Shown piece after piece: positions 1,606-39,990 of a stretch of 64,000 nt of DNA (positions within the stretch are counted from its first letter, which is position 1; the number at the start of each line of letters is the position of its first letter). The stretch lies in the NCBI GenBank assembly GCA_039030395.1, contig JBCCEF010000003.1:320830-384829 (forward strand), given 5' to 3'. The stretch is from Acidobacteriota bacterium. GTDB taxonomy: Bacteria; Acidobacteriota; Thermoanaerobaculia; Multivoradales; JBCCEF01. A program made the position numbers and the translations under genes. The notes under the pieces were generated by a model. It saw only the letters and a list, made by a program, of their open reading frames with translations. It ran no database searches and had not been told where the DNA came from.

Positions 1606-1975
1606 GTTCTAGGAGTTTTATCTCTAGCCGTCCTGAGAATTGGGACTAGATGGCTGCTAGGGAATTCGATGCGGCTTACGACCGAGCCTCGAAGGCGAGG
1701 CGGCGAAGCCGACTCGGGGGTGAGCCACGAAGTGGCGAGGGGGGCTTGCGACAGCAGGTTGCTGAAGGGCGGCTTCGCCGAGGTTTTCAGCAGCCTGCTG
1801 TCTGTTTCATTTCCAGGGGGCTAGGCGCCCCCTCGCCTGAAAAGGCAAGCCTCTTCAGGCTCACCCCATCCTCGGCAGCTCCGCTGCCGCCTCGCCTCTG
1901 GGCTCGGAGAGTTTTCTTGGAAGAGTCCGCGAAGCGCATCTTCAGCAGTCTGCTAGTTGAGAACGATTAGGTCTG
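1606..1975. repeat. Intergenic structured repeat element, copy A (long, composite)
   Basis: It contains the family modules: the gcaggttgctgaa...ttttcagcagcctgctg hairpin, ctaggcgccccctcgcctgaaaaggcaagcctcttcaggctcacccc, cctcggcagctccgctgccgcctcgcctctgggctcgg, and the terminal ttcagcagtctgctag. Copies at 8028, 18058, 28890, 29620, 34520 and 39797 share these blocks. Confidence 0.7.
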
Positions 1976-2672
1976 TGGCCCCGGTGTCGTCCCACACGCT
2001 GCGGTGGATGTCGACGTAGGTCGAGATCACCTTGGAAACATAGCGGCGGGTCTCGCGGAAGGGCGGGATGCCGCCAAACCGGCGCACGTTGCCGGGACCG
2101 GCGTTATAGGCCGCCAGGGCCAACTCCAGGTCCCCATCGTAGGTGTCGAGCAACTGCCGCAGATAGCGGGCGCCGATGTCCAGGTTGACCGCCGGATTGC
2201 TCAATTCGGTGCTGAATCCGCCGGTGGCCGGCATCACCTGCATTAGGCCGACGGCTCCCACCGGCGACACGGCGTGGGGCAGAAACCCCGATTCCACCTC
2301 GATCACCGCGGCGACCAGCAGGCTGTCCAGGTCGTAGCGCTCCGCCGCTTCGACGATCTCGCCGCCAAAGGGCACGGATTCGAGGTAGCGATGGTTGTCC
2401 TCTTTAAGGTTGTAGCTGCGGAACAGCTCGAAGGTTTCGGGGCGCTCTCGCACGGCGGCCCGGATGTCCACCGGGCTCATGGTGCCGAGGCTGCCCTCGT
2501 CGGAGTCCGTGAGCCAGAGGGCGAGTTCGTCGAGAACGGCGATCTCTTCCGGGCTCGGAATCTCCACTGACGGAGGCGTGGGCGGGGCGGAAACCCCGGT
2601 GCCGCCGGAGCTGAGAAGGAAGGCGAGGGTGGCGAAAGTCGCCAGCACGCCTTGGAGTCGTAAACAGATCAT
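1953..2672 (-). CDS. Lytic murein transglycosylase (SLT domain), secreted
   Basis: 239 aa with an N-terminal signal peptide. The SLT catalytic motif is EVESGFLPHAVSPVGAVGLMQVMP ... AAYNAGPGNV. Confidence 0.8.
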   Translation of the reverse strand: MICLRLQGVLATFATLAFLLSSGGTGVSAPPTPPSVEIPSPEEIAVLDELALWLTDSDEGSLGTMSPVDIRAAVRERPETFELFRSYNLKEDNHRYLESVPFGGEIVEAAERYDLDSLLVAAVIEVESGFLPHAVSPVGAVGLMQVMPATGGFSTELSNPAVNLDIGARYLRQLLDTYDGDLELALAAYNAGPGNVRRFGGIPPFRETRRYVSKVISTYVDIHRSVWDDTGATDLIVLN

Positions 2673-2902
2673 GGTGAATTCAGGTCCTAGTTTCGGTCGG
2701 GAACGGGGCTGGACCGGCGACGGGGTGATCGTGGCCTGTGGGTGGGGCCGGCTCAGCCTCGGTGTACTGATCCCGCCGGAGACGTATTCATCCCGGACGG
2801 GCGCCTGCCTTCTTGCGTCGTAAGAAGCAGGTTGTATGCCAACCGGCGCATCGGCCGGTGCTTTTGTTACGGCCCAGAGATTTTCTTACGACGGTACGCG
2901 GA

Positions 2903-37201: not shown

Positions 37202-37372
37202 GACCTTGGTTCCTGGCTGACAGAAATGAGAGCCACGAAGAACCGCAGTAAACTATGTAGGACAATTGAAATTGAACAATCTCTTGGCGAATGTGATGCC
37301 GTCGGCGAGGACGCCGGGTGCTCGCTGTACTTTGGGAGACAACGGCTGGAACTATTGACTTTGGAGGCTGCA

Positions 37373-39796
37373 ATGAAACGATTCGCTGCACTGTTTTTGA
37401 CCATCTTCTCCATCCTGTTCTTCGCTGCTCTCGCTGCGCCGGCTCTGGCTCAGGAGGCGGAAGAAGAGGAAGCGTCGGTCAGTGAGGAGATCGTGTCGGA
37501 AGAGATCACCGTCACCGCTCGGAAAAAAGAAGAGACCCTGCAGGAAGTACCCTTCTCGGTCGTCGCGACCACCGAAGAAGTGCTGCGGGATCGGGGCGCG
37601 GAGTCGATCGAGGACGTTTCCGCGAACGTCGCCGGATTCACCGTTCAGAACCTGGGACCCGGCCAGAGCCAGGTCGCCATCCGCGGCGTCTCCGCCGGCC
37701 AGATCGTGCGCGACCAGCCGGGTGTGAAGGAGCAAGTGGGCGTCTACCTGGACGAGTCGGTCATTTCCCTCTCCCTCTTCACTCCCGACATCGATCTCTT
37801 CGACATGAACCGAGTCGAGGTCCTGCGCGGTCCTCAGGGCACCCTTTTCGGTTCGGGTTCGCTGTCCGGTACGGTGCGCTACATCAGCAACCAGCCGGAG
37901 ATCGGAGTGCAGGACGGCGTCGCCGAACTTTCGATCCACTCCATCACCGACGGTGACATCGGTGGCAGCGCCAAGGTCGCCTTCAACCAGCCCTTGGGGG
38001 AGACGGCGGCCATGCGGATCGCCGCCTACTACACCAGCCTCGGGGGCTACATCGATGCGGTGCAGCCCGGTCTGCGGCTGGACGAAGACGTCAACGGTGG
38101 GGATCGCACCGGGGTCCGCTGGTCCTTCCTGATTCGACCGAACGAGCGCTTGAAAATCACGCCGCGTCTCCTCTACCAGGAAGTCGACATGGACGGCTGG
38201 AATCGTGCCGATGCCTACAACATCCTCGGCAACCCATTCACCACCACCCGGCCAGCCGTCGACTTCGGGGAGCGTGAGCAGTTCACTCAGATCGGGGAGC
38301 CCTTCACGGATGAGTTCCTGCTGGCCGATCTCAACATCGAGTACGACTTCGGCGACCTGAGCCTGACGTCAATCACCTCTTTCACCGATCGCGACGTACT
38401 GGTGGTGCGGGATGCGACGGCCTTGACCGCCAGCATCACCGGCGGCACCATCGGCCTCGCGGAGCCGGTCTACTCCATCGATGCGCCCCTCGACGACGCG
38501 ACGACGGCCCAAACCATCACCCAGGAATTCCGCCTGGCCGGTCAGCGAGATCGGTTGGATTGGGTGACCGGTGTTTTCTACAGCACCACCGAGCGCGACT
38601 ACGACCAGCGCCTCCTGGTGGACGGATTCGAAACCGCATCGGGTATCTCGACGGTTGGCCTGCGGGCGCCTCGTGACGTGTTGTTCTTTTCGGATCTCGA
38701 CTACGAGTTCGATCAAGTCGCCCTGTTCGGAGAGGCGACCTACGCCGTGACCGACCGTCTCCATCTCACCGGAGGTCTGCGTTTCTACGACTTCAGCGAA
38801 GACCGTACCCAGGTGTTCGACGGCATCTTCGGCAACAACGACAACGGGACCGCCCTGGTTTCGACCACCGGCTCGACCTCGGCGGACGGATTCGCTCCGC
38901 GGGTGATCGCCAGCTTCGACGTCACGGAAAACACCCAGTTGAACGCCCAGGTGTCCAAGGGCTTCCGCCTGGGCGGGATCAACGATCCCCTGAACGTGCC
39001 GCTCTGCACCCCCGAGGATCTCGACACCTTCGGCGGGCGCGAAACCTGGGAAGACGAAGAACTCTGGAACTATGAAGTGGGCGCCAAGTCCACCCTCCAC
39101 GGCGGGCGCACCACCGTCAACGTGGCCGCCTTTACGGCGGACATCAGCGATCTGCAGGCGACCGTCACGGCGGGATCGTGCTCCTCCCGGGTGGTCTTCA
39201 ATGTACCGGACGCCAAGAGCACCGGTCTCGAATTCGAAGTGGCTTCGCAGGTCACCAACTTCTTCGATTTCGCCATCTCCGCCAGCTACAACGACTCGGA
39301 GTTGGGGTCGACCCTGACCTCCACCGACGCCGCCGGCAACGTCAGCGTGGTGGCGGGCATCGAGGACGGAGCGCGCTTGCCGACGGTGCCTCGTTTCCAG
39401 GCCGCTGTGGCGGCCACTCGGCGTTGGGAAATGAGCCGTGGGTGGGCCGGCTACCTCACCGGCAGCTACCAGCACGTCGGCTCGAGGTTCACCCAAATCG
39501 GTGACCAGGCGGCGGGCTTCGGAACCGTCAACCTGTTGGCCTTCGATCCCAACAACATCGGCGGTCCGCTGACCCAAAGCGCCTTCAACTTCGATCCGGA
39601 ACTCCCGGCCTACGACCTCCTCAACCTCCGTCTCGGTTTCCTCAACGAAACCTGGGATTTCGCCGTCTTCGTCAAGAACATCACCGACGAAGTGGCTCTC
39701 CTGGCCCTCGATCAAGAGCGTGGAACTCTGGCGCGAGTCGGCTACCTGACCAACCAGCCGAGAACCTTCGGCGCGACGGCCCGGGTCCGGTTCTAG
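37373..39796 (+). CDS. TonB-dependent outer-membrane receptor
   Basis: The track ORF is trimmed to MKRFAALFLTIFSILFFAALAAPALAQEA (signal). Plug-domain motifs are present (TVTARKKEETLQEVPFSV, RVEVLRGPQGTLFGSGSLSGTVRY). The C-terminus ...ARVRF is an aromatic terminal residue typical of beta-barrels. Confidence 0.85.
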   Translation: MKRFAALFLTIFSILFFAALAAPALAQEAEEEEASVSEEIVSEEITVTARKKEETLQEVPFSVVATTEEVLRDRGAESIEDVSANVAGFTVQNLGPGQSQVAIRGVSAGQIVRDQPGVKEQVGVYLDESVISLSLFTPDIDLFDMNRVEVLRGPQGTLFGSGSLSGTVRYISNQPEIGVQDGVAELSIHSITDGDIGGSAKVAFNQPLGETAAMRIAAYYTSLGGYIDAVQPGLRLDEDVNGGDRTGVRWSFLIRPNERLKITPRLLYQEVDMDGWNRADAYNILGNPFTTTRPAVDFGEREQFTQIGEPFTDEFLLADLNIEYDFGDLSLTSITSFTDRDVLVVRDATALTASITGGTIGLAEPVYSIDAPLDDATTAQTITQEFRLAGQRDRLDWVTGVFYSTTERDYDQRLLVDGFETASGISTVGLRAPRDVLFFSDLDYEFDQVALFGEATYAVTDRLHLTGGLRFYDFSEDRTQVFDGIFGNNDNGTALVSTTGSTSADGFAPRVIASFDVTENTQLNAQVSKGFRLGGINDPLNVPLCTPEDLDTFGGRETWEDEELWNYEVGAKSTLHGGRTTVNVAAFTADISDLQATVTAGSCSSRVVFNVPDAKSTGLEFEVASQVTNFFDFAISASYNDSELGSTLTSTDAAGNVSVVAGIEDGARLPTVPRFQAAVAATRRWEMSRGWAGYLTGSYQHVGSRFTQIGDQAAGFGTVNLLAFDPNNIGGPLTQSAFNFDPELPAYDLLNLRLGFLNETWDFAVFVKNITDEVALLALDQERGTLARVGYLTNQPRTFGATARVRF

Positions 39797-39990
39797 CAGA
39801 TTGCTGAAAAGGCCTGTGGCTTATGATTTCAGCAACCTGCTGGATTCTTCATTGCCGGGTCTAGGCGCCCCCTCGATCGAAAACACCAGTGTTTTCGGTC
39901 TCACCCCATCCACGGCGCCTGCGGCGCCGCCTCGCCTGTCAGGCTTGGTGCAGGGTGCTGATATAGATCTTGAGCACCCTGCTAGAGGGT
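39797..39990. repeat. Intergenic structured repeat element, copy G
   Basis: tctagcagattgctgaaaaggcctgtggcttatgatttcagcaacctgctgg ... ctaggcgccccctcgatcgaaaacaccagtgttttcggtctcacccc ... cggcgcctgcggcgccgcctcgcctgtcaggcttgg ... cagggtgctgatatagatcttgagcaccctgctag. Confidence 0.65.

Follow-up and report, generated by a model that had tools for sequence, protein, structure and literature searches.

Dispersed CTAG-flanked repeats with IS5-type hairpin ends and a structured core: a probable MITE family in a genome of Acidobacteriota

A 64,000-nt stretch of the genome of an Acidobacteriota bacterium (assembly GCA_039030395.1, contig JBCCEF010000003.1, positions 320,830 to 384,829 of the forward strand; hereafter, the window) contains a series of structured intergenic repeats, which raise the question of whether they are mobile elements, RNA-level regulators, palindromes of the repetitive extragenic palindromic (REP) type, or misread coding sequence. 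The evidence presented here makes it likely that these repeats constitute a MITE (miniature inverted-repeat transposable element) family that is moved in trans by a CTAG-targeting transposase of the IS5 family.

A repeat scan, side-by-side reading, and an alignment of nine segments supported the initial annotation of a dispersed repeat in that the eight places listed there hold a single family: nine alignable copies, 131 to 220 nt in length, at eight loci in the first 40 kb of the window (Table 1), which have their ordered modules in common and contain all the modules quoted originally. A covariance model built from the element core (R1) recovered these copies, although it barely detected copy F, and gave no match outside the listed loci in the entire 64 kb, including the part from 40 to 64 kb. 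The arms of the terminal hairpins are likewise confined within the window to the same loci as the cores. Most pairs among the fuller copies are 65 to 81% identical, and the indels between the copies include those of 1 nt and of other lengths not divisible by three. Some details had to be revised: copies C and D, considered nearly identical at first, are identical in 132 of 163 positions (81%); the first locus does carry the repeat but is composite, consisting of a partial inverted copy, A1, and a full copy, A2, with one hairpin common to both; and copy D, while ending at 29045 as proposed, starts at a second CTAG at 28851 and not at 28890. Every copy lies between genes, as originally stated. 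The neighbors are ordinary chromosomal genes in a genome with a G+C content of 65%, and a comparison of the window with a plasmid collection revealed no match to any known plasmid.

A full copy consists of a left terminal hairpin, a core of three covarying hairpins (M1, M2, and M3), and a right terminal hairpin. It opens with CTAGCAGG and closes with CCTGCTAG, each end being a hairpin of roughly 45 to 50 nt. The general pattern of the terminal hairpin is CTAG-CAGGnnGCTGA...TCAGCnnCCTG-CTAG, in agreement with the previously described module CTAGCAGG..GCTGA...TCAGC..CCTGCTAG; in the plus orientation, the left hairpin reads CTAG-CAGGnnGCTGAAA...TTTCAGCnnCCTG-CTAG and the right one (GGAG)CAGGGnGCTGA...TCAGCACCCTG-CTAG. 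Accordingly, copies A2, E, F, and G start with (C)TAGCAGG..GCTGA and finish with TCAGC..CCTGCTA(G), as terminal inverted repeats, whereas one or both of these ends have been lost in copies C, B, and X. The core is ~100 nt long and begins ~14 nt after the left terminal hairpin. Hairpin M1, GGGGGCTnGGCGCCCCC, is followed by TCG; hairpin M2, CCnGAAAA...TTTTCnGG, is followed by CTCACCCC; and hairpin M3, CGGCnGC...GCnGCCG, is followed by CCTCG...GGCTCGG. The modules GGGGGCTnGGCGCCCCCTCG and CGGCnGC..GCnGCCGCCTCG were both confirmed in the copies, and the words GGGG...CCCCTCG and CTCACCCC of the core are invariant. In the six best window copies, pairing in M2, M3, and the terminal hairpin is maintained through two-sided changes. 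Both examined copies fold far better than their shuffled versions, copy G as RNA (z = -5.9) and copy D as DNA (z = -9.6).

The terminal hairpins can be traced to insertion sequences (ISs). A hairpin pattern scan matched at least 120 loci in metagenome contigs, and in contigs L122, L164, and L076 the hairpin was found at both ends of 1.7- to 1.8-kb ISs of the IS5 family. The transposases of these three ISs, 343 to 354 aa in length, combine the Pfam domains DUF772 and DDE_Tnp_1 and score 260 to 266 bits against the NCBIfam model NF033581, "IS5 family transposase" (cut-off, 140); their assignment to IS1182 was rejected, the score being under the cut-off of that model. In the 1,805-nt contig L122, the order is CTAG, hairpin, the gene for a 354-aa transposase, a gene for a 23S rRNA-intervening-sequence protein (IVP), hairpin, and CTAG, and the ends form inverted repeats of ~115 nt. 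Contig L076 contains a complete IS of ~1.72 kb within unique sequence, with CTAG on both sides, of which the left one provides the TAG stop of the upstream open reading frame (ORF). A transposase or IVP gene is found beside the hairpin in L164, L163, L076, L097, and L099. Within each IS, the hairpin variant is identical at both ends, so the hairpin belongs to the IS terminus and not to a neighboring element. Between window copy E, at its right end (CTAGCAGGGTGCTGAGA...TTCAGCGCCCTGCTCCGAGCC), and the end of the L122 IS (CTAGCAGGGTGCTGAGA...CTCAGCACCCTGCTCCGTGCC), the match extends past the hairpin itself: 17 of 17 positions are identical in the outer arm, and the similarity continues into CTGCTCCGnGCC, which corresponds to GGCTCGGAG of the window core on the other strand. 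Homologs of the transposase number in the thousands, nearly all of them on contigs of 1.2 to 2 kb, as expected for a repeated IS. The hairpins also exist as minimal elements, since CTAG was present on both sides in 76 of the 156 hairpin pattern matches listed from metagenome loci, the solo hairpins being 34 to 64 nt long. Generation of CTAG direct repeats has been reported for IS5 (PMC10379815). An origin from IS630/Tc1-type elements, suggested by the TA inside CTAG, was dropped once the hairpins were recognized as ends of IS5-family elements; a literature search for IS630-type MITEs at CTAG sites or stop codons returned nothing relevant.

The second, small gene that lies beside the transposase gene in these ISs encodes a four-helix-bundle protein that belongs to PF05635, the 23S rRNA-intervening-sequence family. 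This gene was seen at L122:1303-1680, L164:110-454, L163:76-420, L076:523-867, and L099:2320-2649 and looks like a conserved passenger of the hairpin-ended ISs. Many contigs of the Ga0172372/Ga0172373 samples (L051, L056, L064, L065, L093, and L118) begin ~73 nt before the hairpin, and it appears that the IS is abundant enough in these samples to break the assemblies at its ends.

The target tetranucleotide is scarce in the window, with 59 CTAG sites seen against ~202 expected from the base composition, and about a third of these are in or at the elements. The overlap between a terminal CTAG and the TAG stop of mglB, noticed previously, proved to be one of six such cases: at 1953, 18207, 29042, 29849, 34684, and 39793, the terminal CTAG contains the stop codon of the adjacent gene. 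The MglB-like protein of the window (29042-29536) is identical to a protein of an NCBI metagenome-assembled genome labeled as Acidobacteriota, and its closest relatives with names are Thermoanaerobaculia. The mglB locus was compared with the corresponding loci of three relatives represented by metagenome-assembled genomes (L038, L040, and L041; MglB identity of 88% and 80%). In all three, mglB ends in ...GCGACTAG-GG..., with a single CTAG followed by an 81-nt spacer, which represents an empty site. In the window, the GACTAG at the mglB stop is followed by 195 nt ending in CTAG, after which the sequence realigns with those of the relatives at CAACCG. The single CTAG in the relatives and this realignment identify copy D as an insertion at the stop-codon CTAG. 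For the relatives with 88% and 80% MglB identity, a scan of the orthologous 20-kb loci with model R1 did not detect any core, whereas the matching region of the window holds copies D, E, and F. At the compared loci, the presence or absence of the elements is therefore lineage-specific. As regards target-site duplication, copies D, F, and G each have CTAG on either side, and the empty site has it only once, as such duplication would leave, while its length may be either that of TA or that of CTAG.

The other two sites were less simple. At the site of copy E, the CTAG stop is also present in the closest relative, L038, where it precedes a decayed segment with an M1-like hairpin, GGGGGCGCCGGAGCCCCC (L038:9740-10000), which suggests that some insertions may be older and that the insertion at E is possibly common to both lineages. 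No clean empty site was found in L038 at either E or F, and the gene order at F differs. The methyltransferase gene at F ends, on the TAG of the element, six to ten codons earlier than its L040 ortholog, and the insertion seems to have replaced the C terminus of the protein. With respect to the gene upstream, five elements are in one orientation and three in the opposite one.

The suggestion that the repeats are mobile, non-autonomous, and MITE-like, made in the initial annotation, is thus supported by their IS5-type hairpin termini, the CTAG flanks, and the site that is empty in three relatives. According to the proposed mechanism, an IS5-family DDE transposase would act in trans on a non-coding element of 130 to 220 nt and insert it at CTAG, duplicating this tetranucleotide or its central TA. 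The outer hairpin arm, (CTAG)CAGGnnGCTGA..., would serve as the terminal inverted repeat, as it does in the IS, and the ~100-nt three-hairpin core, presumably a captured structured module, would occupy the place that the transposase gene has in the IS. A TAG stop preceded by C would be a harmless target, as the duplication would rebuild the stop. Given this and the rarity of CTAG, the surviving copies could be expected to sit immediately after genes, with the terminal CTAG doubling as the stop codon. We infer that an IS5-family transposase of this kind in this genome moves the copies.

Several observations weigh against this explanation. No transposase was found among the window ORFs examined by Pfam, including those in the 41- to 64-kb region, and autonomous elements with these ends are known from other metagenomes only. 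A single clean empty site was obtained; the palindromic target fits a 2-bp TA duplication and a 4-bp CTAG duplication alike, with the copies in another genome (see below) favoring TA; and copies C, X, and B have no recognizable second end. Judging by the 65 to 81% identity between the copies, there is no sign of recent transposition. Finally, the core does not derive from the IS and is distributed differently from the hairpin ends: no core was detected beside the hairpins in ~0.5 Mb of metagenome hairpin loci, so transposition does not explain the conservation of the core.

Among the known systems, the closest to the window family are the IS5-derived MITEs, which are similarly short, non-coding, dispersed, intergenic, and flanked by CTAG, have ends that match those of an autonomous IS, and vary in their presence between relatives. 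In the window family, however, each terminus is itself a hairpin of 35 to 60 nt (the inverted repeat plus its inner inverted copy), so that a single hairpin can stand alone between two CTAGs; the interior is a separate three-hairpin module and not a deleted IS; and the autonomous partner comes from other metagenomes. The Correia elements of Neisseria and the RUP elements of Streptococcus pneumoniae are also small MITEs, 100 to 200 nt in length, with inverted-repeat ends and TA duplication. Like the window family, they are intergenic, often located at gene ends, and a source of annotation artifacts; they are also cotranscribed with genes. They are attributed to IS630-like or unknown transposases, and their inverted repeats are unrelated in sequence to those described here. 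To our knowledge, neither of them has a hairpin at each end or a conserved multihairpin core.

The core was sought in a genome collection with the pattern CCCCTC-N4-GAA..TTC-N3-CTCACCCC, which returned 36 loci; ~13 of them look like chance matches in coding sequence, and the rest belong to multicopy families. One genome, labeled as Enterobacteriaceae, contains a ~190-nt element of the same plan as that in the window but with different end hairpins and with sharp boundaries, TA-GCAGACTGCGCC...GGCGCAGTCTGC-TA (TA-GCAG...CTGC-TA), the outermost base being variable. The Acidobacteria bin Dive96 carries M1-TCG-M2-CTCACCCC, with or without M3 and at times in tandem. Several Rhodobacterales carry a ~75-nt intergenic unit, M1-TCG-M2-CTCACCCC-CGGGATATTT, of the form AGGGGGCGCTGCCCCC-TCG-hairpin-CTCACCCCCGGGATATTT (L007, L019, L022, L026, L011, L017, L005, and L042:20001-20070); these include several Paracoccaceae, Thalassovita, Roseovarius, and the megaplasmid of Ruegeria sp. 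TM1040. In 6 or 7 of 8 cases, the Rhodobacterales unit is in the sense orientation and overlaps a stop codon or lies no more than ~30 nt downstream of it; in L019 and L026, a partial copy in inverted orientation, without the TCG-hairpin-CTCA part, lies opposite the unit. The unit of Ruegeria sp. TM1040 (NC_008043.1, 559140-559199) is unannotated and has a different M2 sequence, with CCCCCTCG and CTCACCCCC retained. It was the best of the matches, all of them weak, in a BLAST search of plasmids with a 78-nt Paracoccaceae unit, and R1 missed it, which means that this model is insensitive to distant units.

The genome with the ~190-nt element is "uncultured Enterobacteriaceae bacterium binchicken_co46_896" (CAZLMW01...; L003, L008, L013, L014, L023, L032, and L033). 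Its G+C content is 63 to 66% and its MITE is Acidobacteriota-like; the Enterobacteriaceae label is probably wrong, being doubtful for a genome with 65% G+C.

In an alignment of 28 copies fitted to R1, in which the two C-rich words were fixed by the search pattern, pairing extends to 89.9% of the cells and covariation reaches a score of 0.327, compared to 0.087 for shuffles and at most 0.11 for slid partners. Since MAFFT misplaced the M1 stems across taxa, the cross-taxon covariation rests on this model-fitted alignment. The outer GGGG:CCCC of M1 is unchanged in all 28 copies, and its inner stem and M2 covary freely; the invariance of the C-rich words is independently tested only by L013:5851-5948, the Ruegeria copy, and window copy X. 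That the stems covary while G4, C4TCG, and CTCAC4 stay fixed suggests recognition by a conserved protein, an intrastrand triplex or switch of G4 with the two C4 tracts, or a function in the 3' untranslated region (3'-UTR). It is conceivable, if rather unlikely, that GGGG-(variable stem-loop)-CCCC-TCG-(variable hairpin)-CTCACCCC is an undescribed structured module, independent of the IS5-type ends, that has been captured and spread by the window MITE. Multiple copies of the module, with different flanking sequences or without any, are present in a second Acidobacteria genome, and in a third genome the module lies inside a differently ended MITE; no publication on the M1 hairpins or the Rhodobacterales tail came up in an exact-sequence literature search. 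The hairpins may have been conserved because only structured master copies transpose or because the structure was selected after insertion.

The fixed G and C tracts also bring up a triplex. In an H-DNA-like intrastrand motif predicted from the sequence, by analogy with the BoxC/TM-ECO repeats of Escherichia coli, the G4:C4 of M1 would take the C4 of CTCACCCC (the G4 of GGGGTGAG on the other strand) as the third strand, with M2 as the connecting loop. The constancy of the outer M1 pairs amid freely covarying stems would agree with such a motif, as would the mirror-repeat nature of CCCC(C)TC and CTCACCCC. TM-ECO, CCCTCNCCC-N3-6-GGGNGAGGG-N3-GGGNGAGGG, is a dispersed repeat that has been shown to form a triplex and that is present in different copy numbers in related strains (Holder et al. 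2015, PMC4666352). Like the repeats in the window, it is G/C rich and has mirror-symmetric tracts and the words CCCTCG and GGGTGAG. However, TM-ECO is ~35 nt long, with three 9-nt tracts and loops of 3 to 6 nt, whereas the tracts in the window are 4 to 6 nt long and separated by full hairpins. Only 4 to 6 triads could form, the loops are hairpins and not 1 to 6 nt long, and the register requires a bulged base; besides, the TM-ECO pattern had no matches in the window, and the cross-taxon invariance of the two C-rich words was partly imposed by the search. A triplex is accordingly regarded as highly improbable.

The strong folding and the covariation could also mean that the elements, or their cores, are kept for their action as RNA, i.e., as a 3'-UTR stabilizer or terminator, an operon processing site, or a small RNA, with mobility being secondary. 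The location of the window copies directly after stop codons points in the same direction, and so does, as a hint, the sense orientation of the Rhodobacterales units at or just after stop codons. However, the location after stop codons is accounted for by the CTAG target, the orientation relative to the upstream gene is mixed, the same genes exist in relatives without the elements, and the alignment behind the covariation was fitted to the model. In the stems, G-U pairs (13) and A-C mismatches (17) are balanced, which indicates that the hairpins are kept equally on both strands. In a search of the window against Rfam, only a tRNA-Ser passed the gathering threshold, and the 28850-29880 segment gave nothing better than E = 0.17, with that match located outside the elements; matches to the Rfam families sX8, mir-2076, and RT-15 were at chance level and were discarded. 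A search for intrinsic terminators in 27500-40500 found the only strong site at 34517-34542, outside the elements, and one weak partial match inside them, but no canonical terminator. The strong site, GGGCCGGTTCC-TTCG-GGAACCGGC followed by a T run, comes after the gene 33153-34487, just ahead of copy F. The gene upstream of F therefore has a terminator of its own, and the genome uses normal terminators for which the elements are not substitutes. The RNA-level function envisaged initially (a stabilizer, terminator, or small RNA) has thus gained no positive support, and preservation of the elements for such a function appears distinctly unlikely.

The same annotation also called the repeats REP-like. 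REP/BIME sequences of Enterobacteria and Pseudomonas and the RIMEs of rhizobia are indeed mosaics of palindromic modules that occur in mixed orientation, after genes and within operons. If the window repeats were of this type, their palindromic units would be recognized as single-stranded hairpins, spread by a domesticated Y1 (RAYT) transposase, and assembled into mosaics. This would agree with the modules that also occur separately, with the covariation of stems next to invariant unpaired bases, as hairpin-plus-flank recognition would produce, with the lack of a G-U versus A-C strand bias, and with the GGTGAG before M2 (in the minus orientation), which loosely resembles the GTAG of REPs. However, REPs are palindromes of 20 to 40 nt with a 5' GTAG, and Y1 transposases produce no target duplication, whereas the hairpins described here are 35 to 60 nt long, carry CTAG at their ends and not GTAG or GTGG, and form the ends of DDE-type IS5-family elements. 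The CTAG, double at the filled site and single at the empty one, has the appearance of a target duplication. None of the loci showed a RAYT gene, and no Y1 transposase was found among the window ORFs submitted to Pfam. The REP-like label is therefore not supported, and a RAYT-driven origin is very unlikely.

The remaining alternative is that the copies are a conserved protein-coding segment, since the core can be read in frame as GLGAPS..(LFR/VFG)LTPS in ORFs 1650-1970, 15732-18158, and 39801-41507. Reading these ORFs verified the peptide GLGAPSPEK..LFRLTPS reported to be common to all three, as well as the annotation hazard that it poses. A coding nature of the copies can be considered practically negligible: they occur in both orientations between well-supported genes, they differ by indels of 1 nt and other non-triplet lengths, their changes follow base pairing and not codons, and the segment is absent from relatives. 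In the helicase ORF, 15732-18158, the UvrD domain starts only at residue 86, with the element taking up the first ~40 codons. This ORF and 39801-41507 have very probably been extended N-terminally by the element.

Table 1. Copies of the CTAG-flanked repeat in the 64-kb window (R1, covariance model of the core)
Copy	Coordinates	Strand	Components	R1 score and other evidence	Ends and neighboring genes
A1	1646-1751	-	Partial inverted core without the 5' arm of hairpin M1	26.6 bits over 1681-1837; alignment	Adjoins A2; hairpin 1752-1800 common to both (sequence)
A2	1752-1956	+	Complete: left hairpin at 1752-1800, core at 1811-1908, and right hairpin at 1909-1956	109 bits	TAG stop of the SLT-domain gene 1953-2672(-) lies in the terminal CTAG, 1953-1956
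X	4681-4824	-	Degenerate core with insertions, without terminal hairpins	33.3 bits; alignment	LysM gene 3300-4598(-) and TPR gene 4832-5701(-)
B	8002-8219	+	Variant left hairpin at 8002-8053; core at 8061-8200, containing two insertions	46.5 bits	Right end is a remnant, CTAGCAG at 8204-8219; PASTA gene and RseP-like M50 protease gene
C	18048-18210	-	Left hairpin 18159-18210, core 18052-18150, without right hairpin	110 bits	CTAG 18207-18210 holds the TAG stop of gene 18207-19466(-); upstream of UvrD-like helicase
D	28851-29045	-	Left hairpin at 28996-29045, core at 28886-28988, and a degenerate right end that stops at CTAG 28851-28854	93.7 bits	CTAG 29042-29045 holds the TAG stop of mglB (Roadblock/LC7, 29042-29536(-)); small-GTPase gene mglA on the other side
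E	29633-29852	+	Left hairpin at 29633-29686 with a degenerate outer arm, core at 29694-29807 with insertion, right hairpin at 29806-29852	84 bits	TAG stop of the FtrD-like gene 29849-30331(-) lies in CTAG 29849-29852
F	34557-34687	-	Internally deleted: complete hairpin 34557-34602, shortened core, half hairpin 34646-34687	E = 0.83	CTAG at both ends; CTAG 34684-34687 gives the TAG stop of the methyltransferase gene 34684-35370(-)
G	39793-39985	+	Complete: left hairpin at 39793-39842, core at 39851-39949, and right hairpin at 39948-39985	99 bits	TAG stop of the TonB-dependent receptor gene 37226-39796(+) lies in CTAG 39793-39796

The rest of the window contains several other features. The tRNA-Ser(GCT) gene is located at 43757-43848 on the minus strand. 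The segment 50001-52000 has a G+C fraction of 0.575, compared to ~0.65 to 0.70 elsewhere, and may be foreign DNA; no integrase was found among the window ORFs tested. The region from ~51 to 64 kb is occupied by long minus-strand ORFs that have no Pfam match and show a weaker G+C bias at the third codon position. It includes a 300-nt direct repeat, 59158-59457 and 60271-60570, with 77% identity between the copies, which are 1.1 kb apart; these may represent repeated domains or paralogous genes.

MITEs and IS5 elements are well known, and the window family is absent from Rfam and from the literature searched; only the unit common to different phyla might represent something of a new kind. For genome annotation, the elements are a nuisance, as they falsely lengthen the helicase and a 568-aa protein, create a 106-aa phantom ORF, and supply or replace stop codons, so masking them is advisable for gene callers applied to metagenome-assembled genomes of Acidobacteriota. 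Possible effects on the neighboring genes include hairpins at mRNA 3' ends, altered leaders, and the shortened C terminus of the methyltransferase. The probable IS5 connection implies an IS5-family lineage with hairpin termini, in which a single hairpin of 35 to 60 nt can act as a minimal element if it has CTAG on both sides. It also implies that, in a genome rich in G+C and poor in CTAG, a CTAG target directs insertions to TAG stops, even inside operons such as mglB-mglA. The cross-phylum two-hairpin unit, which is present in cultivable Roseobacters, offers a concrete, testable motif.

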